From contig CALSSJ010000007.1 of NCBI GenBank assembly GCA_943788985.1, positions 10,268 through 74,267 on the forward strand: a DNA stretch of 64,000 nt, in the 5' to 3' direction. Under the pieces are notes generated by a model that was not told the DNA's origin, did not search any database, and saw only the letters and a list, made by a program, of their open reading frames with translations. Below, piece by piece: positions 1,045 through 63,304 of this stretch. The stretch comes from an uncultured Lentisphaerales bacterium. Its GTDB lineage: Bacteria > Verrucomicrobiota > Lentisphaeria > JABSQK01 > UBA12247. Each line of letters opens with the position of its first letter. Position 1 is the first letter of the stretch. The translations under genes and the position numbers were made by a program.

Positions 1045-1971
1045 TCAACTGAGCTGCGCTAAGTCCTCGTCGCTAAGCCGCAAGTCGGCCGCGGCCAGAT
1101 TCTCATCGAGCTGCTCGACTGTGCTCGCGGAGTACAATGGGATCACTGGCGCTGGGCGCTGTTGCAGCCAAGCGAGTACGACCTGACCCGGTGTCACCCC
1201 GTGTGCTTTTGCGATCTTCGCAAGCACCGTCAGGCGCCCTTGGTTCTCCGGGGTCTTGTACGGCTTCGGAATCGCTCGGTCGGGGCGCTGATAGGCCCCT
1301 TTCAATAAGGGCGAGTAGGCGACGCGGGTCACGCCGATTGCGGACTCCGCATCATCATGTTCCTCGTTGGCTGGTGGCCAGGGGTGGTAGCTGCGACCGC
1401 GGACTGGGCGCAGATACGTGTACTTGCTCTGGTGCGCGCAGAGTGCCTCTCCGGCACGGTCAGCCACCAACGCCAGGCGCCACGCCGCGAAGTTACTGAT
1501 ACCAAGGTGCAGAATCTTCCCCTCGCTGCGCAGCTGCTGCAAGGCGCCGAGCCACTCCGCGATCGGCACCTCGCGGTCATCTAGATGCGCGTAATACAAA
1601 TCTATGTGCGAAGTTCGTAATCGTTTAAGGCTCGCTTCGCACTGCGCGCGAATCCACTCGGGGCGCAGCCCTTGGGGAATCCCCGGCGTGTCAGCGGAAG
1701 GTTTACAGCCAAAGCCAACCTTGGTGGCCAGCACCACGTTGTCCCGCTCTTGGTTCTCGGCAAGCCAGCTTCCGACCCTGCCCTCGCTATCGCCTGCACG
1801 CCCATCTTGGACCCACCCCGCATAGACATTAGCCGTGTCTAGGAAGGTGCCCCCAGCATCGCGAAAACGCGTCAGCAACGCGGCAGCGTGCGGCGCAGTT
1901 CCGAAATACATGGTGCCGAGACAGTGCGCGCTGACCTTTGGACCGGTGATCCCTAATTGAAGTGATTGCAT
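1045..1971 (-). CDS. Aldo/keto reductase
   Basis: Motifs CLGTMYFG, FLDTANVY, VVLATKVG, SLKRLRTSHIDLYYAH, LGISNF, AYSPL. Start placed at ATG 1971 (MQSLQLG). Confidence 0.92.
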   Translation of the reverse strand: MQSLQLGITGPKVSAHCLGTMYFGTAPHAAALLTRFRDAGGTFLDTANVYAGWVQDGRAGDSEGRVGSWLAENQERDNVVLATKVGFGCKPSADTPGIPQGLRPEWIRAQCEASLKRLRTSHIDLYYAHLDDREVPIAEWLGALQQLRSEGKILHLGISNFAAWRLALVADRAGEALCAHQSKYTYLRPVRGRSYHPWPPANEEHDDAESAIGVTRVAYSPLLKGAYQRPDRAIPKPYKTPENQGRLTVLAKIAKAHGVTPGQVVLAWLQQRPAPVIPLYSASTVEQLDENLAAADLRLSDEDLAQLS

Positions 1972-2064
1972 CACGATCGCGACAAACTCCGGCATTTGTA
2001 CTTGATATCTTGTTCCCGTAACAAACATTAGCCGCTTTCGTAACACACTGCGCATTGTAGGCCT

Positions 2065-6780: not shown

Positions 6781-9020
6781 AAGCGCTGGAGGCGATCAGC
6801 GAGCAGGCTGAAACGCGGGGTCACGCGGGCATTGTCAACAGCTTGTGCCAGCGCCTTTGGCGAGCCGATCAGGATCAGCAGACGTCTGGCTCGAGTCATG
6901 GCGGTGTACAGCAGCTTACGCCGTAACATCACATAGTGCGCCATCAAAATTGGCACGACCACCGCCGGAAACTCGCTACCCTGTGACTTGTGAATCGTGG
7001 TGGCATAGGCCAGTTGCAGTTGGTCAGCCTCCTCCCAGGCGTAGGTCGCCGCGTGACCTTCGTAGGAAACCGTCAGCTGCTTGAGTTCCGGGCGAACTTC
7101 GATGATGTGGCCGATGTCTCCGTTGAAGACGTGTAAATCATAATTGTTCGAACGCTGCATCACCTTATCTCCAAGTCGGAAGCGCGTTTCGCCGAAGGGC
7201 ACAAAAATCTGCCCCTCTCGGTGCGGATTCAGTAACCCCTGCAAGTGCTGGTTGATCCGGCTGACGCCGACGTCTCCGCGGTTCATCGGACTCAGAACCT
7301 GAATGTCACGCTCGGCGACCATGCCGAAGCGCTGCGGAATCCGATCGCGCACCATGGTCCCGATCAAGGAAACCACTTGCTGCGGGTCTTCCTGTTCGAC
7401 CCAATAGTAGTCGAGCAATTCCGGTCCCTCGACCGGGCGCGTGTAGGGAAGCTTCCCCTCATTGACGCGATGTGCGTTGCGCACGATCAGGCTTCCAGCC
7501 CCTTGCCGATAGACGCGCTTGAGCTCGGTTACGGCAAAGCGATCACAGCGGATCAGGTCGCGCAGCACGGAGCCGGGGCCAACCGATGGCAGCTGGTCGC
7601 GATCGCCGACCAGCACGACGTGAATCCCGGGGCTTATGGCTGCGAACAGCGCCACCGCTAACGGCAGGTCCAGCATCGAGACCTCGTCCACGATCAGCAA
7701 ATCTGCGGGAAGGGGATTCTCGGCATTGTGCGAAAAGCCCATGATCTCGGGATCCCAGCGCAACAGGCGGTGGATGGTCTGCGCGTCCTTGCCGCTCGAC
7801 TCTGCGAGGCGCTTGGCCGCGCGGCCGGTCGGTGCGCACAGACTGATGCGTAGCGACAGCTCTCTCGCCGCCTGTACGATGGTGCGAGTCACGGTGGTCT
7901 TGCCCACGCCTGGGCCACCCGTGATGATGGACAGGGAGTGAGAAAATGCTGCAGAGACCGCATCCTGTTGCTCCTCGTTCAGCCGCTGCCAGCTCTGTGA
8001 CTCTACCCGGGGCGCTCCCCCCACGCCCTCAAGCTGCGGCCCAGGTAGAAAGCACCCCAGCATTCGTACCAGCGCCTGTTCCGCCTCATGGAGCCGGGCT
8101 GGAAAAACCAGTGGCTCGTCGCCGCCATCATCACTGACCACTGCAGCACCGTCCGCGACAGCTCGTTCAATCCCAAGCTGGACCTTGTCCTCACCGACCT
8201 CCAGCATGGCCGCGGCTCGCTCCTCAAGCAGGCTTATGGGCACGCACGTGTGCCCCTGCTGTTGTGCGAACTCCGCAAGAACGTGCGCGACACCAGCACC
8301 CAGCCGAAACGGATTGTCCGCCTCGATATCCAAGTGGCGCGCGACCACATCCGCCATACGAAACCCAATACCGCGGACATCCGCAGCCAGCCGATACGGA
8401 TTCTCAGCGATGCGCGTGGGCGCCGCCTCGCCGTAGACCTTAATCACCCGATTTGCGTAAGCCTTGGACAGCCCGATCCCTTGGAGGTGGGAGAGCAACT
8501 CACGTTGGCCGCTCTGCGCATGCCACGCTTCCCGGATCTTGTGAATCTTGTTCTTCCCCAGACCGGGTACCTCCGAGAGGCGCCCGGAAAACTGATCGAG
8601 TACACGGAAGGTATCGGTCCCGAACTGGGCGACGATTCTCTCGGCCATCTTCGGGCCCACTCCAGGCAGGACACCGCCAGCCAAGTAGCGCTGCATTCCC
8701 TCGGTGGTCTGCGGTAGCACCACACGCAAGTCCGCCACGCGCAGTTGCTCGCCATAGGCGCGGTGTCTCTCTCGTTTCCCCCGTGCTGCCACGTGCTGCC
8801 CAACCTGCAAGTCGGCGACCGCACCAATCAACACATGTTCGGTGTCGTCCGAATCGACCACGCGCACGACCGCGTACTCGCCATCTTCGCTCGCATAGAC
8901 CAGCGCGACCACTTCCCCGCGTACGCCGTGCTCCAGGGGAGATTCTGCGGCTTGGCTAAGCGGCAGCTCGCCCTGCTCATCCGGGCTCACGGAGTCCCCG
9001 GCCGCAGTTCCTGCCGCCAA
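6777..9020 (-). CDS. recD2: ATP-dependent RecD2-like DNA helicase
   Basis: HhH repeats (GVGPKMAERIV, GIGFRMAD), Walker A TGGPGVGKTT, DEVSM, GDRDQLPSVG, TIHKSQGSEF, YTAMTRAR. Confidence 0.95.
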   Translation of the reverse strand: MAAGTAAGDSVSPDEQGELPLSQAAESPLEHGVRGEVVALVYASEDGEYAVVRVVDSDDTEHVLIGAVADLQVGQHVAARGKRERHRAYGEQLRVADLRVVLPQTTEGMQRYLAGGVLPGVGPKMAERIVAQFGTDTFRVLDQFSGRLSEVPGLGKNKIHKIREAWHAQSGQRELLSHLQGIGLSKAYANRVIKVYGEAAPTRIAENPYRLAADVRGIGFRMADVVARHLDIEADNPFRLGAGVAHVLAEFAQQQGHTCVPISLLEERAAAMLEVGEDKVQLGIERAVADGAAVVSDDGGDEPLVFPARLHEAEQALVRMLGCFLPGPQLEGVGGAPRVESQSWQRLNEEQQDAVSAAFSHSLSIITGGPGVGKTTVTRTIVQAARELSLRISLCAPTGRAAKRLAESSGKDAQTIHRLLRWDPEIMGFSHNAENPLPADLLIVDEVSMLDLPLAVALFAAISPGIHVVLVGDRDQLPSVGPGSVLRDLIRCDRFAVTELKRVYRQGAGSLIVRNAHRVNEGKLPYTRPVEGPELLDYYWVEQEDPQQVVSLIGTMVRDRIPQRFGMVAERDIQVLSPMNRGDVGVSRINQHLQGLLNPHREGQIFVPFGETRFRLGDKVMQRSNNYDLHVFNGDIGHIIEVRPELKQLTVSYEGHAATYAWEEADQLQLAYATTIHKSQGSEFPAVVVPILMAHYVMLRRKLLYTAMTRARRLLILIGSPKALAQAVDNARVTPRFSLLADRLQRL

Positions 9021-12201: not shown

Positions 12202-13179
12202 ATGCTCGCCATGTATCGTATACTAAAGATCCCTTCGCCCATGTCAACGTTTGGTTATCCAAAACCTTCCCTGTCTGCGGAAAAAGTCTCGCTCCAGCCC
12301 TTTCTGTCACCGGCAGATCGCGTGCGGCGCGCGGCTATCTTCATGAGCGGCTCCGGCGCTAACGCGGAAGCAATTCTGCACGCCCTACAGGCAGACCCGC
12401 ACCCGCAACTCGAGATTGTCGCGCTGGTCACAGACCGGCCGACACGCAGCCGCACCCATGAGATCGGCGCGGCTTTCGGCTTGCCGGTGATCGCTCAAGA
12501 TATTTTTGAGTACTATCGCAGTCATGGCCAGCGACGCGTCACACTTGCCACGGCGGAAGGGTGCGAAATGCGCAACCGCTGGACCGACGCGCTGCGCGAA
12601 CAACTCGTGCCGCTCGCGATCGACTTCGGCATTTTCGCCGGGTTTGTGCCGCTCTGCAATATTGCCGGAGACTTTCCGTGCCTGAACGTCCACCCCGGTG
12701 ACCTCACCGTACTGCGTGACGCCCAACGCTACCTGGTAGGCCTGCATACCACGCCGATCGAACGCGCGATTCTCGCCGACCATGACGCGCTGCGCTCCAG
12801 CGTGATCATCGCCGAGCCGTTTACCGCTGGTGGGGACAACATGGATTCCGGCCCGTTGCTCGGGATCTCCGCGCCAGTTCCGGTGCACCTACAAGGCGCC
12901 GCGCTTTGCGAACTCCGCAAAATCTTCGAGGCCCGACCCGCCATTCGCCCTGCCAAAGGCTATGGTGACCAGTTGGAAGCCATTGCCGATGAGAACCTCG
13001 ACCGGTTGAAACACGGCGGAGATCTCTTACTTTTCCCACGCGTTGTTGCGGAGTTCGCAGCAGATCGCTTTGCTCTGGACGAGTGCCAGGCCCTCCACTA
13101 CGCGAGTGAGGGTACCTGGCGGCCTGTTCAAACCGTCGTCTATCACCAGGACGCCAAGCCACGTACCATTCCACGCTGA
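12202..13179 (+). CDS. Formyltransferase-family (PurN-like) protein
   Basis: [31 protein letters not shown] motifs. Start uncertain (12202, 12211 or 12241). Confidence 0.75.
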
Positions 13180-13186: not shown

Positions 13187-13777
13187 ATGTCCCGCACCGC
13201 CACAGAGTCCCGCACTACTGCGGAAACCAGTATCGAGATCAGCCTCAACCTCGATGGATCCGGAATTGCGAACATCGCAACCGGAATCCCATTTATGGAC
13301 CACATGCTCACGTTATTCAGCCGCCATGGCTACTTCGACCTCTCCGTCAAAGCCGCGGGCGACTTGGAAATAGATGAGCACCACACCATGGAAGACCTCG
13401 GGCTGGTTCTGGGCACGGTCATTCGCCGGGCGCTAGGGGACAAGAAAGGGATTCGCCGCTATGGCTTCTTCCTGCTGCCAATGGACGAGACGCTCACTCG
13501 CGTCGTCTTGGACCTCTCAGGGCGCCCCTACTTGTCCTACCACGCCACTTGGCCGTCGGACTACATCAAAAGCATGAACGTGCGCCTCTTCTGTGAGTTC
13601 TTCCAGGCGCTGACCAATACTTTGGGCGTAAACCTACACATTGACGTGATTCGCGGCGAGGATGTCCACCATATCGCTGAGTCGATGTTCAAGGGTTTTG
13701 CTCGCGCGTTGGACGCAGCCACGCTCATTGACCCGCGCGAAATCGGTGTTCCTTCCACCAAGGGCTCGCTGAGCTAA
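13187..13777 (+). CDS. hisB: Imidazoleglycerol-phosphate dehydratase
   Basis: [52 protein letters not shown] upstream of ATG 13187. Confidence 0.97.
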
Positions 13778-14637: not shown

Positions 14638-15441
14638 TCACCTCGAAGCTTTTTCCGACATTCGCTCTGCGATGATCACCACAACCAAAGGAATTGCCGC
14701 CGCGAGCGGATAGAGCTCCCGCCATTCAGGGCTGTGATACGGCATGCGCGCAGCGATCTCCAACTCCGAAAGCACCGGCAGCGGGAGCGGCGATGGCTCC
14801 GCGACTTGAACGATGCGCAAACCGGCAGCAGCGACCTGTGAGACCAATTCTCCAATTGGTTGCACGCGCGCTGCGATAAACGCATCACTTTCCTCACAGA
14901 ACCGAACGTCCGCTGGCGGGTTGTAGTAGTCCCGTACGAACATGCCACTGCCCTCATCATCGATGTCGAGCCACTCTGCCGCGAACAGCGGATGGCCAGT
15001 GGTCAGGACCAAATGTCCGCCAGGTCGGAGCAGCGCAGCCATCGCCCCAATGACTTCTTCGGGAGCTTCCGCGAAGGGCAGGGCGTAGGTGCTGTGGACT
15101 AGGTCGAACGTGGGAGTAAGGGGAAACGGCAAGCGCTCCATACCCGCCTGCACCCAGCAGACTCGATCTGCCCCAGGCAACTCGCGGCCATGTTGCAGCT
15201 GGCGCCGTGAGACATCCAGAGCCGTACACCGCAAGCCCAGACTGGCAAGATAGATGCTGTTCTGCCCAGCTCCTGCGCCGATCTCAAGCGCTGTCTGACC
15301 GCCTTGTAGCGGAGGGAGCAGTCCTAATTCTTGGTCCCCGGGGAGCAGCGGCCCATAGTGAAAGTTGTCTGTGGCGATTCGGGTGACCGCCTGGTACTCA
15401 TGGGACAAGGCGTCCCAGTATTGCTCGTTGGCTGCGGTCAA
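14638..15441 (-). CDS. Class I SAM-dependent methyltransferase
   Basis: ALEIGAGAG, ALDVS, FDLVHS, LLRPGGHLV. Confidence 0.9.
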   Translation of the reverse strand: MTAANEQYWDALSHEYQAVTRIATDNFHYGPLLPGDQELGLLPPLQGGQTALEIGAGAGQNSIYLASLGLRCTALDVSRRQLQHGRELPGADRVCWVQAGMERLPFPLTPTFDLVHSTYALPFAEAPEEVIGAMAALLRPGGHLVLTTGHPLFAAEWLDIDDEGSGMFVRDYYNPPADVRFCEESDAFIAARVQPIGELVSQVAAAGLRIVQVAEPSPLPLPVLSELEIAARMPYHSPEWRELYPLAAAIPLVVVIIAERMSEKASR

Positions 15442-17561: not shown

Positions 17562-17960
17562 CTATCGCGTGCCTAATTCCTGGCGGATAAGCTCTGCGAG
17601 GTTCGCAAGCTCCGCCGGGTCAGCGGCGGCTGCGTTGGCAAAGTTAAGATCTGTCACCTCTTGAATCGGGACGAGGTGCAAGTGCGCGTGCGGCACTTCT
17701 AGGCCAGCCACCATCAGGCCGACCTTCCGACAGGGCACCCCCCTTTCTAGTGCCTGCGCCACAGGCCGCGCAAAAACCATAATCTCGCTCAGCAACTCAT
17801 TCCCCATCTCGAAAAAGTGATCAATCTCAACTTTAGGAATGACGAGCGCGTGACCTCTGGCAATCGGCCGGACGTCTAGGAATGCGAGAAAGCGATCGTC
17901 CTCCGCAAGCCGATGGCAGGGAATCTCACCGTGAATGATGCGGCTGAAAATTGTGGTCAT
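17562..17960 (-). CDS. HIT family nucleotide-binding protein
   Basis: TIFSRIIHGEIP, GHALVIPK, histidine triad HAHLH; start ATG 17960. Confidence 0.93.
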   Translation of the reverse strand: MTTIFSRIIHGEIPCHRLAEDDRFLAFLDVRPIARGHALVIPKVEIDHFFEMGNELLSEIMVFARPVAQALERGVPCRKVGLMVAGLEVPHAHLHLVPIQEVTDLNFANAAAADPAELANLAELIRQELGTR

Positions 17961-18116: not shown

Positions 18117-20003
18117 ATGTCTGCATTTCTTGACGCCATACAGTCCCGCACCCTAATCTGCGACGGTGCGACGGGCTCGCTAATCTTCCGCAAAACCGGA
18201 AGACTTTCCGAGCAGAACCACGTCTATGAGTCCTTCAATGCCGATCAGCCCGACCTCCTACGGGATGTACACTGCGCCTATGTCGAAGCTGGCGTGGACT
18301 GTCTCACCACCAACACGTTCGGCGCCAATCCACGGGTCCTGCGGCGCTACGGCCTGGAGCATCGTACAGCTGAGTTCAACACCACCGGGGTCATCCTGGC
18401 CCGTGAAGCCTTTGCCCGCTACGACCGTCGAGGCTTCGTCTTGGGCTCCATCGGCCCCACCCCTTCGTCTGCCTGCACGAGTTCCAGACTCAAGCGGATC
18501 TACCACACCCAGGCTACCACCTTGGCAGATGCTGGCGTCGATGCCTTCCTACTCGAAACATTTGCCAATCTCGACATTCTCAGCGGGGTCATAGAGGTCC
18601 TCCAGGGCGTATCGACTGAGATTCCCATTATCGCCCAGGTCACATTGCGCATTCCCCATGGCCACGCAGAAGGCCATATCAAGGCCAAAGCTTTGCTGGA
18701 TAAGATCGCATCCTCGGGCGTAGCGGTGGTGGGGGTCAACTGCTGTTCCCCGAGCGAAGTAGAGGGCTTCGTGATTGAACTTGCCGCGGAGCGCGACCGC
18801 CGGAAGCTGGACCTAAGCCTCTCGGCCATGCCCAATATCGGCACTCTCCAGGGGGAAGGAAACCGCCTGGTGAACCTCTCCAACCCAGAGTACATGGGCC
18901 GCCAGGCACGCACTCTCTGCGACCTAGGCGTTTCGTTGATCGGCGGCTGCTGCGAGGTCCACCCCGAGCACATTCGCGAAGTTCGCAACTATGTGCAATC
19001 GCGCCAACCTGGCGGGAGAGAGGCCTACCAAGCTGTAGTTTTTGCCGGTGGCCACAAGCCCGCGGGCCCCACTCGCAAACAAGAGAACGGCCCCTTCTCA
19101 CGAAAGCTTTTCAACAACGAGTTTGTTGTCAGTGTCGAGCTGCTACCACCACGAGGCACAGCGCCCAAAACCGTCGACAGCAAGATCGCCTTTGTTTCCG
19201 AAATGGCCGAATCCGGCCTCGCAGATGCCATTGACATTACCGATGGCTCGCGCGGGATTCCCCTGATGCCACCCGGTGATTTCGCCATGCTATGCCGCCA
19301 GGGAATGGCAGATCCCAGTGCCCTCGAAATCATCCCGCACTTTACCTCGCGGGATCTGAACACGCTGGGTATTCAAAGCCGGCTCATCGGCTATCACTGG
19401 AACCACCTGCGCAATGTCCTCTTTATCACCGGCGATCCGCCTAAAATGGCACCAGACTACCCCGCCTCCACGGGCGTGTTTGATCTCGACAGCGTCGAAC
19501 TCGCGCGTATGACTCATCTCGGGCTCAACGCCGGGCTAGATTTTGGCGGACGCCCCCTCTCGAAGCAATCCCTCCCCTGCCAGTTCACAATCGGGAGCGG
19601 CTTCGAGCCTGAAGCGGTTGACCTCGACGCTGAGGTCCAAAAACTCGAGCGTAAGATTGACGCCGGTGTCGACTACTTCATGACCCAACCTGCCTTTCAT
19701 CGCGAACCGCTGGACGTGCTCACCCCCTACCGGGACAGAACCAAGGTCTTAGTGGGAGTTATGGTGCTAAGCAGCCTGGCGCAAGCACAGCGCATTGCCG
19801 CCGTCCCCGGCGTCGTCCTCCCCCGGCACATTTTGGACACGCTCGCCCAATACGACTCCGCCGAGGACCAAGCCAAGGCCGGGATGGACCTCGCGGTTGC
19901 CCAGGCCGCCTGGGTGCGCAGCAACGGCTGGGACGGCCTTTACATCATGGCACCCGGCAGTCACAAGAAGATCTTAGATATTTTGCGGAGTTCGCAAAGC
20001 TAG
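18117..20003 (+). CDS. yitJ: Bifunctional homocysteine S-methyltransferase / 5,10-methylenetetrahydrofolate reductase
   Basis: DGATGS, TNTFGAN, GVNC, IGGCC in the N-half; SVELLPPRG, ITGDPP, YFMTQP in the C-half; start ATG 18117. Confidence 0.9.
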   Translation: MSAFLDAIQSRTLICDGATGSLIFRKTGRLSEQNHVYESFNADQPDLLRDVHCAYVEAGVDCLTTNTFGANPRVLRRYGLEHRTAEFNTTGVILAREAFARYDRRGFVLGSIGPTPSSACTSSRLKRIYHTQATTLADAGVDAFLLETFANLDILSGVIEVLQGVSTEIPIIAQVTLRIPHGHAEGHIKAKALLDKIASSGVAVVGVNCCSPSEVEGFVIELAAERDRRKLDLSLSAMPNIGTLQGEGNRLVNLSNPEYMGRQARTLCDLGVSLIGGCCEVHPEHIREVRNYVQSRQPGGREAYQAVVFAGGHKPAGPTRKQENGPFSRKLFNNEFVVSVELLPPRGTAPKTVDSKIAFVSEMAESGLADAIDITDGSRGIPLMPPGDFAMLCRQGMADPSALEIIPHFTSRDLNTLGIQSRLIGYHWNHLRNVLFITGDPPKMAPDYPASTGVFDLDSVELARMTHLGLNAGLDFGGRPLSKQSLPCQFTIGSGFEPEAVDLDAEVQKLERKIDAGVDYFMTQPAFHREPLDVLTPYRDRTKVLVGVMVLSSLAQAQRIAAVPGVVLPRHILDTLAQYDSAEDQAKAGMDLAVAQAAWVRSNGWDGLYIMAPGSHKKILDILRSSQS

Positions 20004-21151: not shown

Positions 21152-22056
21152 CGCACGCCCCCAGTAACCTCTGCGCATCTGCCCGGCTGGGAAGTGCATC
21201 GTCCGCCTCCCTGCTCGCCTTGACTGCCGCTGCTGCCGTCGCAAAACGCAAGGCTGCCCGAGTGTTCAGACCTTCCAACACAGCCACTGCGTAAGCGGCG
21301 TGGAACACGTCGCCGCATCCAGTAGTATCTCTTACCTCTGCTTGTATCGCACCAAGATGCTCGACGCGCTCCTGGCCACGATCCCAATACCAGCACCCGC
21401 TTGCGCCGTCCGTTACCGCGATCATCGCATGCTGCGAACTCCGCAACTCTCGAACCGCCTCTGCCGCGCTCCCCGCTCCGCTCCAGTCGCAGGCAAACTG
21501 CGCCGGCAGGATCAGATGATCAACCAGACCAATTAACTCCCCCAACTGCGATCCGACGCGGCGCTCGATATCGCCGAGAATGGGAACACCGGCGGCCTTC
21601 GCAATCTTCGCAGCGCGCACCATTCCGGGCACCCCAAAGTGATCCACCAGCAACATGCGCGAGCCTTGAATGATCTCTGCCGGTGGTTCGCCTAGCGCAG
21701 CCCCCCGTGCCTCCGGCACATCAGCCAGGATCGTTCGGGACCCCGTTACTGCATCCACCAGGATGACCGCGTGAACCGGTTGAGCCGTGGTCTCGCGTAG
21801 GGCGTGGGACACATCTACCCCCCCCCGCCACTAGTGAAGCGAGCACATAGGCTGAGCGGTCTGACCGGTCCAGCGCCCCCGCATACGCACAACGTAGCCC
21901 CATCCCTGCAGCGGTAAGAAGCGCGCGCCCCGCAAGCCCACCACAGACCCGCAAATGGCGAGTCATATAGGTCTTCGTGTCCGCAGCAGGGAAGTTCGGC
22001 AGGTAGGCAAGCTCGTCAACTGCTGTGGCACCGAGAGCGAGAAGGTCATATTTCAC
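21141..22056 (-). CDS. PfkB family carbohydrate kinase, frameshifted at a G9 tract (21818-21826)
   Basis: N-half (LGATAVD, CGGLAG) and C-half (VTDGASG, DTTGCGDVFH) lie in different frames that switch at the homopolymer. Confidence 0.85.
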
Positions 22057-22555: not shown

Positions 22556-25442
<2,887 letters not shown>

Positions 25443-33369: not shown

Positions 33370-33505
33370 ATGGCCTCCAGAGTTTTCTCTCGCAGGAAGC
33401 CCATACCATCGCGCGTTCTTAAGGAAAAGAAATCTGCGAACTCCGCAAACGCTCGACTTTGCGGTATCGTATGACCGAAACCCATCCCCTCCCGGAGCTC
33501 GATCC

Positions 33506-39767: not shown

Positions 39768-40522
39768 TGGACCTCGAGCAGAAGCAGGCGCAGCACTACG
39801 ACGCCATCAGCGAAGAATACAACGCCCACTACGGCGATCCCCAGAGCATTCGCTACCGCCATCGCTTCGTCTTTGGCCCCTTATTGCGCGGGCTAGAGCT
39901 CAATGGCGCGACCTTTCTCGACGCAATGTGCGGGCAGGGCGAAGTCTCAGAGTTTGTGCGCGCCCGGGGTGCCAAGCCCATGGGCCTGGATGTCTCCCCC
40001 GAGCAAGTAAAAAGCTACGAGCGCCACTGCCAAGGCAGCACCGGAATCTGCGCCTCCATCCTGGATACCGGACTGGATAGCGAGAGCGTAGACTACGTCA
40101 GCGTCATCGGTGGGCTTCATCATGTCCAACCCGATGTCCCCGGGGCTCTCCGTGAAATCCATCGCATCCTCAAGCCTGGCGGCATGCTGCTCTTCTTCGA
40201 GCCTCACAAAGGATCATTCTTCGACCTGTTGCGCCGCGTCTGGTACGGGCAGGATGGATTATTCGAAGACAACGAAGAAGCGCTCGATATGAAGGCACTC
40301 CGTGCGGAGTTCGCAGACAGCTATCATGTCGACTTCGAGTATTATAAGGGCAACATCGCCTATCTCTTCGTCTACAACTCCATGGTCTTCCGGCTTCCCG
40401 TGGGGGCCAAGAAATACTACGCCCCGCCCTTGCTGTTCCTAGAGCGACTGATCGCCCCCTTCCAGTTTTCCTGGAACTCCTGCTTTGTCATCGGCCGCTG
40501 GCAAAAACGCCCGACGCCCTGA
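39764..40522 (+). CDS. Class I SAM-dependent methyltransferase
   Basis: FLDAMCGQG, GLDVS, GLHH, EIHRILKPGG, FEP. Confidence 0.9.
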   Translation: MMDLEQKQAQHYDAISEEYNAHYGDPQSIRYRHRFVFGPLLRGLELNGATFLDAMCGQGEVSEFVRARGAKPMGLDVSPEQVKSYERHCQGSTGICASILDTGLDSESVDYVSVIGGLHHVQPDVPGALREIHRILKPGGMLLFFEPHKGSFFDLLRRVWYGQDGLFEDNEEALDMKALRAEFADSYHVDFEYYKGNIAYLFVYNSMVFRLPVGAKKYYAPPLLFLERLIAPFQFSWNSCFVIGRWQKRPTP

Positions 40523-43524: not shown

Positions 43525-44886
43525 ATGAAAATCGCAGCTACCTTCTTTGTGCTTGCACTCGGCATTGCTGCCCCTCATCCGGCGGTGTTGCTGTTCTGCG
43601 GGGTGTTCCTGGTGTTGCTCACTGGCTTCCCGGTGGCTTTTGCCCTTGGTGGCGTCTCGGTGCTGTTTGCCTTCGCCTACGGAAAAACCGCAGCCCTAGG
43701 GTTCCTGCCGCTGCGCATCTGGGGCATTCTTGAGAACTACGTGCTGATCGCGGTCCCGCTGTTCATTTTTATGGGCATCATGCTGGAGAAGTCGGGTATT
43801 GCCGAGGAACTGCTGGAAACCTGCGCACAGTTGCTGGGGAGGATTCGGGGCGGGCTGGCAATAACGGTGGTGCTGGTGGGGGCGCTGCTGGCCGCGTCAA
43901 CCGGGATCGTGGGTGCCACGGTGGTGACCATGGGCTTGTTGAGCCTGCCGACGATGTTACGTCGTGGCTACCATGTGCCGCTGTGTACGGGGACGATCTG
44001 TGCAAGCGGGACATTGGGCCAGATTATTCCGCCCAGTATCGTGCTGGTGCTGCTGGGCAGTCAGCTCCAAGAACCGATCGGCGACATGTTTCTGGCTGCT
44101 GTCATTCCCGGCCTGATGTTGGTGGGCATGTACCTGCTGTGGATTGTGATCTTGGGGGTAGTGCGGCCCGAGTGGATGCCGCTGGTACCTGAGGAAGAGC
44201 GGGCGGAATTCGCAAAGAACGTCTCAGTTGCGAAGATCGCACGCGCGCTGATCCCGCCGGTGCTCTTGGTCCTGGGTGTTCTCGGTTCGATCTTTGCGGG
44301 AATCGCAACTCCTACCGAAGCATCGGCTGTGGGTGTGGTGGGCGCGGGGGTGCTGGCGGCGATTCGCGGCAAGCTGAGCCTGGAAACGCTGCGCGGGGTC
44401 AGCCGCGAGACGGCCTTGCTCACCAGCATGGTCTTTATGATTCTGATCGGGGCGACCGCATTCTCGCTGGTGTTTCGCAGCCTGAATGGGCACGTGCTGT
44501 TGCAGCACACCGTGGAGAACGCCCAGCTCGGCCCGCTTCAGTTCCTACTGCTGGCGATGCTGGTGATGTTTATCGCTGGCTTCTTCATCGATTTCATCGA
44601 GATCATCTTCATCTTTGTGCCAGTGTTGATGCCAATCTGCCAGGCCTTTGGCCTTGACATGATCTGGGTGGGCATCTTGATCTCGCTGAATCTGCAGACG
44701 TCGTTTCTGACGCCACCGTTTGGGTTCGCCCTATTTTATCTAAAAGGCGTCGCACCGCCGGAAGTATCGACGCATCAGATCTACCGTGGGATCATTCCGT
44801 TCATTATTATTCAGGCGTTGGTGGTCGCGGCGGTGTTTATCTGGCCGGAGATAGCGCTCTGGCTCCCAGGCCTGAATGGAGAATGA
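43525..44886 (+). CDS. dctM: TRAP transporter large permease
   Basis: GFPVAFAL, LIAVPLFIFMG, GTLGQIIPPS, ATPTEA, TSFLTPPFG. Confidence 0.93.
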   Translation: MKIAATFFVLALGIAAPHPAVLLFCGVFLVLLTGFPVAFALGGVSVLFAFAYGKTAALGFLPLRIWGILENYVLIAVPLFIFMGIMLEKSGIAEELLETCAQLLGRIRGGLAITVVLVGALLAASTGIVGATVVTMGLLSLPTMLRRGYHVPLCTGTICASGTLGQIIPPSIVLVLLGSQLQEPIGDMFLAAVIPGLMLVGMYLLWIVILGVVRPEWMPLVPEEERAEFAKNVSVAKIARALIPPVLLVLGVLGSIFAGIATPTEASAVGVVGAGVLAAIRGKLSLETLRGVSRETALLTSMVFMILIGATAFSLVFRSLNGHVLLQHTVENAQLGPLQFLLLAMLVMFIAGFFIDFIEIIFIFVPVLMPICQAFGLDMIWVGILISLNLQTSFLTPPFGFALFYLKGVAPPEVSTHQIYRGIIPFIIIQALVVAAVFIWPEIALWLPGLNGE

Positions 44887-47829: not shown

Positions 47830-48701
47830 GTCGCGAAATGCAGACCGTATCTTGGCTGGGCATATCTATAGACGTACCGGCGGAATGGGAATTGCTCCAA
47901 TTCTCCCGCATGGCTAAGGCCGGAAATCTGGCTTGGGCCGATCGTTATGAGTTTCGCCTGGAGCTGACCTGGAAGGAAGCTGCCAGTGCCCCGGATCTCG
48001 ATCGCATCATGGATGACTATAAAGCAAGCCTGGTGGAGGAAGACCAGCCAGCGCCACAGCCGACATCGTGGGGGACCTGGCAAGGCTTGGTGGATGTCCA
48101 GCCTGGCGGCATGTCCCGATATGGCCATTACGAGGAAAGCGTCGGCCGTCTGTTAGAGCTGGTTTTTCTCTGGGAGAAGGAGCGGGACATGGACTTGGAA
48201 TACGCCGTGCTCAACAGCGTCAAGCCTGTGGACCACTGGCAGGCCTTTGGCTTGGAAGTGCGAACTCCGCAATTCCTGGAAATGACCGAATGCACCGTCC
48301 AGCCGGCCAATGTGCAGTGGACCTTCAGCGACAGTAAAAAGGCCAAGCATTCCTGGCACTTCGAGCGCATGGGCATGCTTGACGCTTGGCTCAACGTCCC
48401 GCTGGCTGCCTGGCTGCTCGGGAAGGAGCCAGTGGACCTGATCGATCGTCAGCCACAAGAAGCTCAGATCGCGGGTCATGACCTTGCCACCGTCACGGGG
48501 TTCGTGCCCGCCCTAAAATTTCCGCAGTTCAGCAAGCGCAGTGGCCGCTTTATCGGCGCGGCATGGGTCTGCCCCGTGGACAACCGCCTGTACTATGCCT
48601 CCATGATCGTGCCGCGTGACTACGAGGCCACGCCACAGCTGTTCGGCGGCAGCCTGCGTTGCTGCCCGGCCTGTACCAGCCATTCATTGGCGGCATCATG
48701 A
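47826..48701 (+). CDS. Hypothetical soluble protein with two similar halves
   Basis: ATGA overlaps on both sides; halves begin WLGISIDVP and WQAFGLEVRTP. Confidence 0.75.
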   Translation: MSREMQTVSWLGISIDVPAEWELLQFSRMAKAGNLAWADRYEFRLELTWKEAASAPDLDRIMDDYKASLVEEDQPAPQPTSWGTWQGLVDVQPGGMSRYGHYEESVGRLLELVFLWEKERDMDLEYAVLNSVKPVDHWQAFGLEVRTPQFLEMTECTVQPANVQWTFSDSKKAKHSWHFERMGMLDAWLNVPLAAWLLGKEPVDLIDRQPQEAQIAGHDLATVTGFVPALKFPQFSKRSGRFIGAAWVCPVDNRLYYASMIVPRDYEATPQLFGGSLRCCPACTSHSLAAS

Positions 48702-54300: not shown

Positions 54301-56048
54301 ATCCTGGCTGCGATGAGCATGGGCGTCTCCTCCATGCGTCGCCGGCCTTTGCGCACTGCCCTGACTGCGTTGACGATCATCCTCCTTACCTTCACCATTC
54401 TTGGTTTTGCGTCGTTCGGCGCTGAACGCGCCGTGCTTCAGTTTTACGTGCAGCCAGCTCCTGCCTACCCGGCAGTCAGCACCCACGACCTGTCTTGGGA
54501 GCCCATTCCGGAAGAAACCGCGCGGACAGTGAGCACGCTCTACCAGAACCGAGTAACCGTCACAACGCGCCGCTGGAATAGTGCTGAGCAAAATAAGAGC
54601 CTGCAGGCAGTCCTTGGCACCCCGGACGGCAGCCGCCTCGTAAATTTCGACGGCATCCTCGGCATTGGTGCAGACGAGGCAGCCAGACGGCCCGAGATCG
54701 CAGAAATCCTCAAATCTACGGCTGCCCATGAGCAGAGCGTCTGGCTCACGGCTGCTGCCGCGCAACGCGTCGGGGTAGCCCCCGGTGACTCGGTCATCTT
54801 CAACGGCCAGTCGCTGATTGTCGGTGCGCTGCTGCCCACCGCAAAGCTGACCTCGCTAGAAGACATTGATGGCTCGAGCATCCTGCCTGTCGACTTCTCC
54901 CAAGAAGACCCCATGCAGGCGCCAGCAGCCGAAGATCTCGAAGCTGCTGCGAACGTCGCAAAGTCCTTTACTGCCATCGCCGCAGACGCGGTGGTCATTG
55001 TCGGCACCGAGACTGCCAGAAAACTCAACGCCCCAGTGCGCGGCATCTTTCTCTACCCGGACACACTGGAAACCGCTGACGAGCTCGCGCAGGACCTGGC
55101 ACGCGCGCTCCCTCTTCCTGTGACTGGGACCCGAGCAGATGGCGTCTACCGCAACGTCCTCGGCACCGCCTTGGCTGCCAGCGGCGTCAAATCTCTGTTC
55201 TTCCCCCTGCTTCTGGGCGGCTTGGTGATTTTCGGCACGATGCTCGGCTCCGTCGCGGATCGTAAACAGGAAATTTACACGTTCAGCGCGCTTGGCCTGG
55301 CCCCACCGCACGTCGCCGGGCTATTCTTTGCCGAAGCGCTGATTTACTCCATCATCGGCGGCTCGGCGGCTACCTGCTCGCACAGGGCAGCATGAAAGGG
55401 CTTGAGCTCGTGGCCAATACGGGCATGATCCATCTGCCCGAGATGAACTTCTCCTCGACCAATGCGATCGTGACCATCGTTATCGTCATGGGCACCGTTA
55501 TGATCAGCGCGATCTACCCCGCAATTCGAGCCTCAAAATCTGCCAACCCCGGCGTCTTGCGCTCCTGGAAACCACCCGCACCCGTCGGCGATTGCCTTTC
55601 CCTGACCTTCCCGTTTACCGTCAGCCAGTACGACATTACCGGAGTCGTTAGCTTTCTGCGTGAGCATTTTGACGCCTGTAGCGACGTCGGTATGGGGGCA
55701 TTCATGACCAGATCTTCGTCGCTTAAAAGTCGAGACGACGGCCAATTACAACTCGACGCCCAACTGGCCCTGGCCCCCTTTGACCTTGGCGTCACACAGT
55801 CATTCTCGCTGTTCAGCAAGCCCAGCGATATCGAAGGAATCGATGAAGTGGGAATCGAGATTGTGCGCCAGTCGGGCCAACCGCGCGACTGGGCCCGTCA
55901 GAACAAGGTCCTCTTGGACGACCTTCGGACCCAGTTCCTGCTGTGGCGCGCCCTGCCCAAAGAAACCGTAGAAATGTACCGCCTGCGCACGCTCGAATCG
56001 ATCGGCGGTGGGAGGCAAGCAGCGCAATCTGGAGTGGCCAATGGCTGA
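51325..56048 (+). CDS. ~1570-aa fusion: signal peptide, PA/M28-peptidase-like domain, TM bundle and FtsX permease; frameshift near 55362
   Basis: NVIAVVRG, APGA..A..MAALLQIAR, GTPQDT; RRRPLRTALT, SVADRKQEIYTFSALGL. Restoring one base gives IIGGLGGYLLAQGSMKGL...IYPAIRASKSANP. Confidence 0.85.
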
Positions 56049-58841: not shown

Positions 58842-61800
58842 ATGAGAACCATCCTCTCCGTCATTGCCGTGCTACTGGCTTCGGTGAGCCCGCTCTTGGC
58901 GATCAGCGACGGCTTCGAGTCCGGAGACTTTTCCGGGGCAGGGTGGGAGCACGGCTCCCCCGCCGCTAGGACCATCGACAACACACCGACTCGGAAACCG
59001 GTATACCTATTCCGCCACCGCCACCGCGCCTAAAATGGTCAGGAAACCCAGCCTACCGCCTGCGCGTCATCTGCGGAGAAGGACAGGTTCAGTTCTCCCG
59101 CAAGGTCTCTAGCGAGGCCTCCTACGACTACCTGCGCTTCTACCCTGGATGGTGAGTTGGCCGCAAGCTGGAGCGCGCGAGTTGGACTGGCTCACAGTGG
59201 CCTTTTCAGTCTCTGCTGGTTTACACGACTTTCGCTGGGTCTACGAGAAAGATGTTTCAGATGCGGCCGGCGACGACCGCGCCGTGGATCGATGACGTAT
59301 CCTGCGCCCGACCAGGGCGAATGGTCCGCCCATGATACCTTTGCCGCCCCCTCTTGGACGCCGGACGCTGGTCCCAGCAGCAATTCCGGAAACGGGGAGC
59401 GCTCCCCGCCAGCGCCAACGGCAGCGTCACGCTAGCCACGGGCAGCAATGGTGCGAGCAGCAATGGTGCGAGCAGCATCACCAGCACCTCCATGCCCGCA
59501 GAAGTGAAGGCCTGCTGGCCGCCTTTACCTTCATCGGCGAAGGCGAGGCACACGTGCTCTTTGAGCTACTCGATGGCCGCCAGCGTCGCAGTCGAGATTG
59601 GCCCCGATCAGGCTGCCGGCCGAACATTCGGGGACCCGCCCGAATCGTGGGCGGCCAAGATGCAGAAGACGTCTGCGCCGTGGGTAGCAGGGGCTGGCCA
59701 CTCGCGGTGTGCAAGACGGTTTCCAGGCTCAATTCTGCGGCGGCACTCTCATTCACCCCCAGCTGGGTGCTCACTGCCGCGCACTGCATCGAAGGGGGTC
59801 CAGGCCGAAACTGTGGATGTCATTCTGGGCCCGACGCGATCTGTCCTCCTCTGATGGAGAGCGCATCCCCCGTGGCAGAGATCATCCCACTCCCCCGGCT
59901 ACGATCCGGTTACCCCTGGACCGCGATCTGGCTCTGCTGCGGCTAGAAACACCTTCCACCATCACGCCACTGCCTCTGATCACTAGCGCAGATCAATACG
60001 CACCGGGCGTCGTCGCGACCATCCTTGGCTGGGGGAACACTATCGGAAGGGGGCGCTTCGCCCAATCGCCTTCAAATCGCCGAAGTCCCGATCGTATCCA
60101 ACGCGACCGCGAACGCCTCGCCTCTGCTCAGCGGGGTCACCGACAACATGTTCGCCGCCGGTTTCGCAAGCGGCGGGGTCGACACCTGCCAGGGCGACAG
60201 TGGTGGCCCCATCATTGTCCCTGACCGGGCAGTTGTGGCACCCTCGCCGGCGTCACAAGCTGGGGAATCGGCTGCGCCCCAGCCACAAGGACTACGGCCC
60301 TCCTACACGCGCATCGAGAACTTCCTGACCTGGATCAGTGACCACGTCGGCGCGCGCCAACTCACCGCGCGGCTCCTTCAGGGCGACGTCGCCCTTGCGG
60401 AGTCCGCAACCCTCAACACGAGGCGCGGACGCCTTTCGAATCGCCCTGCGCACCGATGACGGCATTCGGCCTCGAACAGAACGGGCTGACCATTTGGGAG
60501 GCAGAGACTGCAGCTTCCGGCACGATTACGGGACTTGCGATCTCCGCACTTTCTGATGAAGGCCCCCACAACCATCTCCCTAGACGAGGTCTCACTCTAC
60601 GATGGCGCTGCCCAAGCGCCGCCTGCGGTCATCCCCTGAGTTCTCGCTGCCCCCCGCGCGCCCATCGGCGGCCAAGTAAGCTGTGATGTCGTGCTTGTCG
60701 GGCCCACCGGCACCTATGCCGTGACCAGCGAACTGCACTACCCCTCTGCCTACCTAACACCGCTGCAGTTGCCCGCCAACATCACCCACCAAGCCCCGGG
60801 AATCCTGAGCGTGGTCATTCCCGAGAGCACGTTGGGCCCGACCACGATCCTCGGCACCGTCTTGTTTTCCGTATCTGCCACTGCCCCAGTCGAGGCAACC
60901 GTACAGACTGCGAACTCCGCAACCACCATCGCCGATTCGATCGAGCAAGGGTCGGCTACCCTGGCCATCATCAACGCCGTGCCGTACGACCTATTCGAGG
61001 CACCGCTGGTCTTGGATCCGTTGAGCGGGACAGTGACCGGATCCGTAGACGGAGCCAGCGCAGAGGATAACGAGCCAACCCACACGAGCTTGGGGAAGGG
61101 CGCTTCACTCTGGTTTTCATGGACCGCACCAGCGGATGGGCACGTGTCCTTCGATACGTTCGGAAGTCTCTTCGACACCGTTCTGGTGGCCTACCAAGGT
61201 GCCGCCTTGGACTCCCTTACCCCGCTCACCGAAAACGATGACGTCTACCAGACCCTGCGCAGCCGCATTGTGCTGCCAGTAAAGGCCCGACAGAATGTCC
61301 GGATCGCCCTCGACCAGGTGTCCCAGGCCAACGCCACTTTTCAGCTACAGCACAGTTTTCGCCCCACCCTGATCCAGGTTGGGGGCACGACCGAAGATTG
61401 GCAGGGAGCCCCGGAATACCAGTGGGAAAGCTTCGGAAATGCCCCCTGGACCGCAGATGCTGGCGCGCTGCGCAGTGGCGCTGCAGGAGACTCTGGGCCT
61501 GAGCGGCATCGAAACCTACGCCGCAGTCGGTACGGGCAGCGTCGAGTTTCGGCTACGCACCAGCTCGGAATTCACCTACGATTTCTTGGTCTTCACCATA
61601 GATGACGTCATCACAGCGAAGTGGAGTGGTGAGATCGCCTGGCAAACCTATACGGCCAACGTGAGCCCTGGCCTGCATCGCTTCTCCTGGATGTACAGCA
61701 AGGACCCCAGCTTCGGTGCCTTTGAGGATGCGGTCTGGATTGATGATATCAGCCTGCCGGCCCCAGACCCGCTCCAGCTAGCACGAACTCCCGGGACGAC

Positions 61801-63304
61801 CTGGCTACATGTCGACGAGGGGAATTCGGTGGTCGCCTCGGTGGGTGTAGAGAATCCAGTCGGACTGCTTTCCTACGAGTGGACCTACGACGGCAACTCC
61901 GTCCCCGGAGACTTGCCCACAACAACCATTTCCCCCGATTTCGATTCGATCACTCACCCTACGCTCTCCGAGACCACAGATTTGGAATGCCATATCACCG
62001 ACCTGGGCACGGGAAAAACCGCAACTCTGAGCTGGGTGGTCACGGTAAACGATCAGGATCAACCGCCTCCAACGCCAACAATCCGCGTGGTCCCGACCGT
62101 CGCCCGCGTCGGATCTGCTGTGGTTGGTGAACTCACTCCAGCACTGGATCTGGACGGGGATGCCGTCCAATACCGCTTTCGTTGGGAAGGCGCAGGCAGA
62201 ACCATCGTCGGTCCCATTCTACCAGCCGGCACCGCGACCCGCGGCCAGGTCTGGCAATTTACGGTCACCCCAGAGACCTTTCCCTATGGCAACCGGGTGC
62301 AGCATGCGGGAGTCACCACCTCGGTGACCTTTGCGAACTCCGCACCAGTTATCCAGGATCAATTCATTGCGATCTCCGCAGCTGTGACTGCACTTGCACC
62401 GGACGCCCATGATCCCGACGGAGACGCGCTCACCGTAGAGATTCTGAGCGCACCGCAGCACGGGACCTGGAACGGCACTCACTACACGGTTGCGAACTTC
62501 GCAGCCTGGGAAGACGAGATCGTCTGGCGGGTGCGAGACACGGAAGGGGCAACCGCGAGCGCAAAGCTTACGCTCTTCCTCGGCGGCTGGCGGCTGCCGC
62601 TGCTGGCAACCGGAGAGCAAGTGGAGATTGGTGCAGCGATCGGCGCCATCGCCGGTGTGGGCGCAGAAGACACGATCGCCGCGACGCCGCTGTTCGCCCA
62701 GGGCAGCGGCAGCGACCTAGACGTGGACCTGCGAGCACTTGGTGCCCCGGCAGTTTGGGAGCTGCCACTCTCAGAGACGACGGTCCTGCAATGGGACCCC
62801 GCGCTGGTTCCACCGCTCGGCCTCACAATCGGGCCCGCGCAGCTGGATATGCGCGCCGTTGCGGAGTTCGCAACCACCGAAAACGCAGTCATTACCACGA
62901 CCGCGCATGAATTCGAGCTCACGCTCCACCCGGGTTGGAACTGGTGCTCCCTGCCGATTCAACCGCTGCAGCCAACCGTGAACGACCTCTTTCCAGCGGC
63001 AAATGTGTACTGTTGGAACGACGGCTGGAAAAGGCCAGCGCTCCTCAATGCCGGGGAGGGCTTTACCGTCTTCGTGCCCGGTGAAGGCTACATAATTCAG
63101 ATCTCAGGCTACGAGAACGCACTCGAGCCCAGCGGAACGGGCTGGCAACTGGTCGGCCCCACCTCGAAACCACCCTACCAGGCGGTGCCAGCCACGGACG
63201 TAAGCGCCGATCCGGTCTGGACGGCAGCCGGCGATGCCTTTGAGCGCGCCGACATGCTCCAACCAGGTACAGCCTACTGGGTCTGGCGCAGCACGGCACC
63301 TTGA
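58842..63304 (+). CDS. Large secreted multidomain trypsin-like (S1) serine protease, broken by many indels
   Basis: Signal peptide. RIVGG, FCGGTLI, WVLTAAHC, DRDLALLRL and DTCQGDSGGP lie in shifting frames. Then a PPC-like domain (SLWFSWTAP...FDTVL), Ig-like repeats and LHPGWNWCSLP. Confidence 0.8.

Follow-up and report, generated by a model that had tools for sequence, protein, structure and literature searches.

The 64-kb window analysed here (the whole stretch of 64,000 nucleotides, G000:C7:10268-74267) belongs to the genome of an uncultured Lentisphaerales bacterium in which one spaced palindromic word, TGCG-N5-CGCA, recurs 1749 times, and this motif is a signal at the level of DNA. Its role is much less certain. 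The explanation ranked first, tentatively and with less than even confidence, is that of a genome-wide tag of self DNA of the kind represented by the DNA uptake sequences (DUS) of Neisseriaceae, the uptake signal sequences (USS) of Pasteurellaceae and the highly iterated palindrome HIP1 of cyanobacteria, recognised by a putative dimeric protein and acting in DNA exchange. Throughout, G000 denotes the source genome, C a contig, and G, g and f the genomes, genera and families of the class, and three kinds of site are counted: the exact 13-mer TGCGAACTCCGCA, the RASTY site (TGCG-RASTY-CGCA) and the arm site (TGCG-N5-CGCA). The G000 assembly comprises 4,582,059 bases in 48 contigs, with 58.3% GC, and is 83.6% complete, so that non-detection of a gene there does not equal its absence.

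In the window, TGCGAACTCCGCA or its reverse complement occurs 14 times, each copy at the place given in the preliminary description of this DNA, while 100 dinucleotide shuffles gave a mean of 0.04 and a maximum of one copy; the expectation of ca. 0.003 copies put forward earlier was a rough one. Arm sites number 34 against a shuffle mean of 3.2, and include all 17 spacer variants listed before, some of them displaced by 1 nt, together with three that had been overlooked (at 12562, 14872 and 31095). The whole of G000 holds 424 exact copies (217 + 207), 850 RASTY sites and 1749 arm sites, and the motif tops both the 10-mer and the 12-mer abundance rankings of the genome. Genes were delimited with our own caller, which returned 3477 of them (83% coding) with some errors, among them the overlooking of a Pfam-supported sulfatase gene at 31996-33828 of the window. 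According to these calls, 356 of the 424 exact copies (84%) are genic and 68 intergenic, as the coding fraction would predict; of the window copies, two had been said to be intergenic, and by these calls those at 16499 and 60909 are. The genic copies show no strand bias, 163 having the orientation of the gene and 193 the opposite one.

Two codon-aware null models, each of 30 shuffles, were set against the 358 exact, 738 RASTY and 1521 arm sites observed in genes. Shuffling of synonymous codons with the proteins kept left 5.1, 12.0 and 225 sites, respectively, an excess of 62- to 70-fold for the motif, and shuffling of codon order left 0.23, 0.57 and 115. Since the observed counts exceed both, not only codon choice but also the proteins themselves have been bent by the motif. 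Each of the six combinations of frame and orientation is used in the 1743 genes with the highest scores, by 19 to 87 copies, the favoured phase being the one that reads Ala-x-x-Ala. The tetrapeptide AEFA is found 125 times where 24 are expected from amino-acid frequencies (AFEA, 13 times), and 91 of the 125 are encoded by GCG GAG TTC GCA, for which 2.2 would be expected. The window copies do read as AEFA, CELR, RSSQ, RTPQ and ANSA, as had been described, and the claim that no protein motif lies behind the dyad holds, all six frames being used far above the codon-aware expectations.

That there is no real feature at all, the copies being due to chance, to codon or dipeptide bias, to a repeated gene or mobile element, or to an assembly artefact, deserves practically no credence. 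Chance and codon bias are excluded by the dinucleotide shuffles and the codon-aware nulls. As to repeats, the 60-nt surroundings of 802 of the 848 sites are unrelated to one another, and sequence more than 2 nt away from a site is random; the other sites are accounted for by a tandem repeat on C2 and by a small number of paralogous domains. The C2 repeat (C2:110464-111269) is built of 201-bp units with one exact copy per unit, five copies in all, and a triplet of sites with the spacers AACTC, ATCTC and AACTT, spread over 171 nt, is shared by window positions 62332-62503 (C7:72599-72770), within the gene of the Big_9/cadherin-like protein, and C41:3160-3331. These few copies spread through duplication, and to that extent the repeat explanation is right. 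An artefact of assembly is refuted by independent contigs. The metagenome contig L003, 99.55% identical to the window over 15,950 nt (70 mismatches), retains all sites of the shared stretch, with equal numbers in both (4 RASTY and 9 arm sites). The stretch was found in 18 runs at no less than half of its words, and in 20 holders in all, from 10 marine or estuary metagenome studies of 2014-2025; all 30 bins of a 20-kb stretch are covered by contigs of four runs from four studies. None of the 40 differences listed, of 201 in these four runs, falls within the 14 sites, a comparison with no power as 0.4 were expected. At the nadA site (41717..41729), strain differences at 41714, 41732, 41735 and 41738 surround the site and none lies within it.

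The motif has a strict architecture. In G000 the two arms are found 1749 times at a spacing of 5 nt and 142-205 times at every other spacing from 0 to 12, and enrichment at a spacing of 5 only recurs in genus g18 (193 vs. 0-9) and in the genomes G321 (48 vs. 1-8), G032 (53 vs. 1-16), G245 (52 vs. 5-17) and G017 (10 vs. 0-1); here, as in the dialect and turnover comparisons below, the relatives were sampled as pieces of 120-800 kb. The arms are extended by T at position -1 and A at +13, each present at 65% of sites in G000 and at 70-77% in g18, and beyond these the flanks are random. The core common to all lineages is the 15-bp TTGCGR-N3-YCGCAA, two identical half-sites one helical turn apart, with the spacer R-A-S-T-Y in G000. 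In this genome the half-sites combine freely: AAC or GAC with GAG or AAG gives 424, 109, 239 and 78 sites (chi2 2.0, p 0.16). The 'preferred asymmetric spacer' noticed at first, AACTC, is therefore the product of independent choices made in the two half-sites. The dimeric reader that was proposed together with it fares better in part: judged from the sequence, the dyad fits reading by a symmetric dimer, and the asymmetric spacer requires no asymmetric reader. From the two-half-site build and the strict one-turn spacing, the predicted reader would be a symmetric dimer making base-specific contacts.

It is the bases that are conserved and not a stem. Perfect sites number 850, whereas the 24 variants possible with one arm letter changed together account for 283, and changes in both arms with pairing kept are seen at 26; at arm positions 2-4, changes of one arm number 159 and those of both arms with pairing kept 5. 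The R and Y positions in g18 show no complementary preference (G..T 35, G..C 35, A..C 34, A..T 31), and the commonest form in G000 is the non-pairing A..C. A hairpin in single-stranded DNA or RNA, its structure being read instead of its sequence, is for these reasons very improbable; single strands of the 15-mers do fold into stems of 5-6 bp at -4.1 to -5.3 kcal/mol, but compensatory changes are lacking and there is no bias towards a transcribed strand, and this explanation was rejected.

The motif is shared with part of the class. A genome was counted as enriched when TGCG-N5-CGCA was present at no fewer than 200 sites and at no less than 5 times the number of a control pattern read backwards, and 28 of 251 class genomes are enriched by both marks (kin among them not being independent); all genomes compared lie outside the family and genus of G000. 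In G000 itself the count is 1749 vs. 158 for the control. In family f9, genera g15 and g18 have 812-1442 sites vs. 22-116, while genus g21 is not enriched (19/8 and 20/20). All 12 genomes of f15 are enriched; in f21, G477 (1800/19 in ca. 2.5 Mb) and G513 (597/31) are and G389 and G475 are not, and in f83, G469 is and G448 and G463 are not. Enrichment was further found in f8, f18, f20, f80 and part of f12, and enrichment of 3-5 times in f3, f16, f76, f79, f82 and G032, whereas no genome of f7 (90 genomes), f6 (47) or f11 (33) passes both thresholds. Among 401 genomes sampled from the phylum, more than 6 RASTY copies were found only within this class, the ca. 270 genomes of other classes having 0-4. 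A scan of metagenomes with NadA gave one near relative in 80 loci, the other 79 (690 kb) holding 1 RASTY site, and a scan of genome contigs gave no motif-rich locus (26 arm sites vs. 15 controls in 498 kb). The GC content of the bearers extends from 35% in G017 through 40% in g18 and 50% in G321 to 64-68% in G245 and G032, and a dyad kept over such a range rules out compositional explanations.

The centre of the dyad varies in dialects: AACTC and GACTC in G000 and G245, GACTC in G032 and G017, AAATC, AATTC and AACTT in G321, and a nearly free centre in g18. The positions of the sites vary even among bearers. In alignments to six other bearers an orthologous site was found for only 7 of 210 G000 sites, and conservation is lower at motif-encoded residues than elsewhere in the same alignments (identity 0.385 vs. 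0.449, Wilcoxon p 3.5e-4). This turnover, together with the low conservation of the residues, indicates that the word is old and its places young, copies arising in situ at tolerant positions. Over shorter distances some retention is seen: in 53 kb of orthologous DNA of the g18 genomes G028 and G025, 72-77% identical, both arms of a G028 site are preserved in G025 in 8 cases out of 20, compared with 12% for random windows (p 0.0014, a small sample), and 4 sites are private to G025.

Along the genome the motif follows resident DNA. The orientation of its asymmetric form relative to local GC skew is unbiased (115/114/102/93), and a replication-direction skew of the Chi or KOPS (FtsK-orienting polar sequence) type was not seen in this table. 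The density is 0.19 per kb genome-wide and, between genes, 0.19 in convergent, 0.16 in tandem and 0.08 in divergent spacers; as the last are the poorest in sites, this is not a promoter motif. Density rises from 0.38 sites per 20 kb below 56% local GC to 6.97 above 59.5% (Spearman 0.56), a slope far steeper than composition explains, and is 8-fold lower in the decile of genes with the lowest GC at third codon positions (GC3). The most prominent gap is an island at C12:1-80000, with no site where 15.7 would be expected. Contig C35 (44 kb) has a single site, its first 20 kb being taken up by a cluster for polysaccharide synthesis that includes transposases and an AIPR gene, and the remains of a type I restriction island on C36 lie in 13.5 kb without any. 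The motif-empty stretches are accessory DNA; as far as 48 contigs show, exclusion tracks low-GC accessory islands and no single domain.

The C12 island has 53-56% GC and is transcribed nearly entirely from one strand; it encodes sulfatases, alpha-L-fucosidases, GH20, GH95, a rhamnosidase, proteins of the exo/endo-phosphatase fold, DUF1559 pilin-like proteins and a DDE transposase. Contig C9 (26 kb), also without a site, carries in C9:1-20000 the genes recD, recB and recC, the last seemingly split in two open reading frames (ORFs), and a 1569-aa protein with DUF4011, helicase and MTES_1575 nuclease domains; a second, full-length recC is located at C10:180442-181464. C9 may have been acquired, or may have been binned by mistake.

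A dyad specific in its bases and spacing, which builds up in resident DNA at low-cost positions and turns over there, behaves like DUS, USS and HIP1, and it is on this ground that the self-DNA tag is ranked first. The number of copies is within the DUS/USS range (1749 in 4.58 Mb of G000; 1800 in ca. 2.5 Mb of G477). In the mechanism envisaged, a homodimeric sequence-specific protein common to the motif-bearing lineages would read the dyad in duplex DNA, and tagged DNA would be favoured at a step of DNA exchange, either uptake or later recombination or processing. New copies would arise by point substitution and then be fixed, so as to build up in long-resident DNA wherever proteins tolerate them and to stay rare in recently acquired islands. 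The fuller proposal, that families of a single class of the Verrucomicrobiota, within the Planctomycetes-Verrucomicrobia-Chlamydiae (PVC) group, share a methylation-independent tag, the symmetric spaced dyad TTGCGR-N3-YCGCAA with its dialects, that its putative dimeric reader biases DNA exchange, and that phages copy the tag, is more doubtful and is offered as a possibility.

Several observations weigh against a tag for DNA exchange. In the 41 class genomes profiled for candidate genes, G000 among them, the presence of uptake genes does not follow that of the motif: PilT is present in 41/41, secretins in 41/41 and ComEC in 39/41, motif-free families included. ComEC was not found in the 83.6% complete G000, and no clear ComEA in G000 or g18, the HHH_3 matches there being in ORFs of ca. 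700 aa; no receptor was found either, a pilin receptor not having been searched for. The sites are clumped and not evenly spaced, with a variance-to-mean ratio of 1.4 at 2 kb, 2.0 at 10 kb and 3.2 at 100 kb. GC3 does not rise locally beside them, as it would at a recombination hot spot, its profile being flat. Classical DUS and USS are, moreover, asymmetric words read by a pilin and not dyads. Finally, a scan of viral sequences with the 15-mer gave, besides 59 loci with the single matches that chance gives, a sixtieth, one 28-kb viral contig (51% complete according to CheckV) with 14 arm sites against 1 control site, or 0.50 per kb compared with 0.38 in G000 (one phage only). A phage at host density is unexpected if uptake alone drives the motif, and suggests a step inside the cell or a long-resident prophage. 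The annotated half of this contig encodes a terminase, portal, protease, capsid, neck and tail-fibre protein. On the same phage contig (the one behind L206), at G518:C1:16031-16355, two site pairs 18 nt apart recur at a distance of 294 nt, which suggests a repeated gene segment.

With phage sites at host density, clumping and no link to uptake genes, two rivals stay alive. The main one, which we regard as rather unlikely, is an array of sites, kept by selection on overall density, to which a sequence-specific dimeric protein of helix-turn-helix type would bind so as to organise the nucleoid or chromosome, in the manner of MatP on matS, SlmA on SBS or Noc on NBS. The strict 15-bp dyad with one-turn spacing and independently varying half-sites, its conservation over 35-68% GC and the lack of promoter, strand or replication bias all agree with such an array, and a host factor working on whatever DNA the cell contains would fit the phage copies. 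A role in chromosome architecture has also been proposed for HIP1 (Xu et al. 2018, PMC5861425). The handling of the chromosome does appear unusual in these bacteria, ParB_N (PF02195) having been found in 10/41 genomes and in none of the bearers. Most of these matches are weak and lie in long or methylase-fused ORFs; there are none in f3, f8, f9, f12 or G000, nor in the near-complete G025 and G028, of two and three contigs, and the class may be largely without chromosomal ParABS. The same result excludes a reader of the ParB/Noc family, for G000 as for the other bearers, and since sister lineages free of the motif lack ParB too, its loss does not explain the motif. Other features speak against an array: matS, SBS and NBS count tens of sites against 850-1800 here, positions are not conserved across lineages (7 of 210), the density differs 18-fold between regions of low and high GC, and one 80-kb stretch is empty.

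The other of the two, an improbable one, is that the sites are a by-product of intracellular sequence-specific repair or conversion that turns near-cognate into cognate words, as in the ratchet model of Elhai, with no function of their own required. The sharp cliff between perfect sites and one-letter variants, the growth of the motif with residence time, with islands left empty, and the location of sites at the least costly protein positions would all follow from such a process, and a phage could be rewritten by it to host density. It would, however, need an enzyme: a search of G000 for Vsr gave no gene, co-occurrence with the motif is seen for no methyltransferase, and no enzyme is known to recognise a mismatch-bearing 15-bp spaced dyad. 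The conservation of g18 sites above background suggests, in addition, that sites are retained.

Methylation, raised in the preliminary description as one option, found no support. In its specific form, in which a methyltransferase of type I or resembling type IIB, with a symmetric specificity subunit, would act on the dyad and make it an epigenetic mark like methylated HIP1, we consider it quite improbable. The bipartite g18 site with its fixed, nearly free spacer has the type I/IIB form, N6_Mtase is present in 5/5 motif-bearing genomes tested, g18 included, and the effect of HIP1 on transformation depends on methylation (Kamoku and Nielsen, 10.1101/2024.09.10.611283). In G000, however, the N6_Mtase matches are fragments only, and A-S-T at the centre of the site is specific, which a type I spacer is not. 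Genomes as a rule avoid restriction-modification sites and are not enriched in them. The decayed type I locus (G000:C36:36244-38978, L269 4244-6978), in a site-free stretch of 13.5 kb, has two hsdM copies broken into at least six frames, the sole hsdS of G000, also there, is a 132-aa fragment, and intact type I methyltransferase or specificity subunits were not found. Searches of G000, at its 83.6% completeness, gave no N6_N4, D12 or Vsr gene, other methyltransferase families not being covered. The near-complete g18 genomes reach 35-55x enrichment of the motif without N6_N4 and D12. N6_N4 was thus rejected (32/41 genomes, none in G000, 0/3 in g18), as were D12 (1/5 motif-bearing genomes, 0/3 in g18, not found in G477 and G000), Vsr (none found in G000) and the C5 methyltransferase as driver (18/41, but 0/5 in f3 and 0/3 in g18).

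The single intact C5 methyltransferase gene of G000, at C17:79194-80342, encodes the one DNA methyltransferase found intact in this genome and is followed ca. 250 nt downstream by an ORF with an HNH nuclease domain (L001 8195-10276); the couple is probably a type II restriction-modification pair. The enzyme has no orthologue among 40 relatives, its best match being 37% identical; a further C5 fragment lies on C35.

None of the candidates tested for presence and absence tracks the motif. Beyond the genes already named, PilT does not discriminate bearers, ComEC is present in motif-free families too, HHH_3/ComEA (31/41) matches mostly Tex-like ORFs, the PilQ-type secretin matches (41/41) include none above the curated cut-off, and RecC (34/41) is missing in the motif-rich G032. 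G000 does have PilT-family ATPases, secretins and DprA. In f3 and f8 a second ComEC-like ORF of 950-1270 aa was noticed (G002:C43, G005:C166, G011:C31, G013:C375, G017:C192), the ordinary ComEC being ca. 700-800 aa and present in one copy in the other families searched; since it is confined to f3 and f8 and missing in g18, g15 and f12, it was dropped as a candidate. A search for an autoregulated transcription factor, with a site at most 300 nt upstream of its gene, yielded 51 site-gene pairs with 49 genes. A pair of sites seemingly upstream of the gene preceding dprA is in fact at or inside aroB.

The sites of the window are listed in Table 1. The window also contains a complete rRNA operon (5S, 23S and 16S; 22275-27273, minus strand), which, as first noticed, has no copy of the motif; a depletion there is not significant, 1.9 copies being expected and P(0) being 0.15. 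The nearest named records of NadA, encoded in the window, are Verrucomicrobia and Kiritimatiellae metagenome-assembled genomes at 73-74% identity and a Lentisphaeria one at 68%.

Table 1. Motif sites in the 64-kb window (window coordinates)
Position	Strand	Site	Spacer	Gene context and peptide
1210..1222		TGCG-N5-CGCA	ATCTT	in gene, read as LAKIA
1339..1351		RASTY-type	GACTC	DAESA
8265..8277	+	exact 13-mer		within RecD2-like helicase gene, LAEFA
12562..12574		arms only	AAATG	
12907..12919	+	exact 13-mer		CELRK
13047..13059	-	exact 13-mer		VAEFA
13267..13279		variant	AACAT	
14872..14884		arms only	ATAAA	
16499..16511	+	exact 13-mer		intergenic by our gene calls
17595..17607		variant	AGGTT	
19984..19996	-	exact 13-mer		end of homocysteine methyltransferase/MTHFR gene, LRSSQ
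21433..21445	+	exact 13-mer		
31095..31107		variant	GACAC	
31347..31359		variant	ATCTC	
32101..32113		RASTY-type		sulfatase gene (31996-33828, minus strand)
32201..32213	-	exact 13-mer		sulfatase gene 31996-33828
33435..33447	+	exact 13-mer		sulfatase gene 31996-33828
36442..36454		arms only	GAGGG	glycosyltransferase gene
37295..37307	+	exact 13-mer		asparagine synthase-like gene, CELRK; preserved in independent contig L003
37328..37340		RANTY-type	AATTC	
37861..37873		RASTY-type	GAGTC	
40303..40315	-	exact 13-mer		methyltransferase-domain gene, RAEFA
41717..41729		variant	GACAT	within nadA
44229..44241		variant	AAGAT	DctM transporter gene
44295..44307		variant	GGAAT	
48259..48271	+	exact 13-mer		VRTPQ
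54948..54960		variant	AACGT	
60396..60408		RASTY-type		
60536..60548		variant	ATCTC	
60909..60921	+	exact 13-mer		intergenic by our gene calls
62332..62344	+	exact 13-mer		Big_9/cadherin-like protein gene, FANSA
62368..62380		variant	ATCTC	
62491..62503		RASTY-type	AACTT	
62860..62872	-	exact 13-mer		VAEFA

The motif, or a comparable word in these bacteria, was found in no paper. Literature searches returned no paper joining HIP with Lentisphaer*, the motif strings occurred just within unrelated primers or not at all, and among the best 12 of 5,728 matches there was no paper on uptake sequences in PVC bacteria, the phrase 'DNA uptake sequence' having 0 occurrences in all 12. A survey of spaced motifs (PMC5217627) does not mention the lineage and has TGCG only in its lists of motif pairs derived from the Haemophilus USS.

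The role of hyper-abundant words such as HIP1 and the origin of uptake-type tags are open questions, for which the dyad offers an independent example from a different phylum. If the reading as a tag is true, this would be the superphylum's first signal of the uptake or recombination type, and also the first such signal with two half-sites in the manner of an operator. Given the several gains or losses within single families, comparative genomics could name the reader, the sister contrasts at hand being g15 and g18 vs. g21, G477 and G513 vs. G389 and G475, and G469 vs. G448 and G463. In practice, the presence of the motif marks resident DNA and its absence acquired DNA, which makes it a signature for the binning of genomes from marine metagenomes, and the dyad can connect phages to these hosts.

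Among the known systems, the sites of MatP, SlmA and Noc (matS, SBS and NBS) are likewise palindromic dyads of 12-16 bp, located mostly in genes and bound by dimers, and matS has the same arm-centre-arm build. They differ in their macrodomain-specific placement and in their number, tens against the 850-1800 sites found here, and no ParB-family protein was found in G000. Sites of type I and type IIB restriction systems share the bipartite form, the fixed spacing and, in g18, the nearly free spacer; the dyad is, by contrast, enriched ca. 10-95-fold, its centre is specific in G000, and type I genes are present there only as fragments. Unlike repetitive extragenic palindromic (REP) elements and miniature inverted-repeat transposable elements (MITEs), it is 84% genic, with unrelated contexts at 802 of 848 sites and flanks that are random past 2 nt.

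DUS and USS are asymmetric words, those of the DUS type being read by the minor pilin ComP. Like them, the dyad occurs about once per 1.4-5 kb and in both orientations; it has dialects, is rare in acquired DNA and shows a similar cliff between perfect and one-off sites. It differs in being symmetric, in that uptake machinery does not separate its bearers, and in the phage with sites at host density. A further likeness is the location in coding DNA at the least costly protein positions with a changed proteome (cf. PMC2817400). For words of the USS type, the minor pilin ComN/PpdA is proposed as reader (PMC12616744).

HIP1 (GCGATCGC) and the alternate HIPs come close in behaviour, being hyper-abundant palindromic words found in genes and spacers and in several frames, born by substitution, without a promoter link and kept above chance between relatives (as are 8/20 sites vs. 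12% in G028 and G025), and widespread yet patchy in a large clade with lineage-specific variant words. HIP1 is a contiguous GC-rich 8-mer of cyanobacteria, while the word described here is a spaced dyad of 13-15 bp with 6-nt half-sites around 3 variable letters, in a class of the Verrucomicrobiota/PVC; it is ca. 10 times rarer per kb than HIP1 in HIP1-rich genomes. No cognate orphan methyltransferase was found here, as far as the C5, N6_N4, D12 and type I families in the incomplete G000 are concerned. The function of HIP1 is itself debated between architecture, repair ratchet and transformation signal (PMC4390886, PMC5861425, PMC13756078, 10.1101/2024.09.10.611283). Elhai 2015 (PMC4390886) links HIP1 to a cognate methyltransferase found wherever the word abounds and sets out the repair-ratchet model, Xu et al. 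2018 (PMC5861425) describe selection and periodicity without a link to promoters, and Rodriguez-Cruz et al. 2026 (PMC13756078) find that the abundance of HIP1 and the genes for type IV pili and competence have co-evolved, methyltransferases not being significant. HIP1 also increases the transformation of Synechococcus PCC 7002 in a methylation-dependent manner (Kamoku and Nielsen, 10.1101/2024.09.10.611283), and this effect provides a precedent for a palindromic tag.

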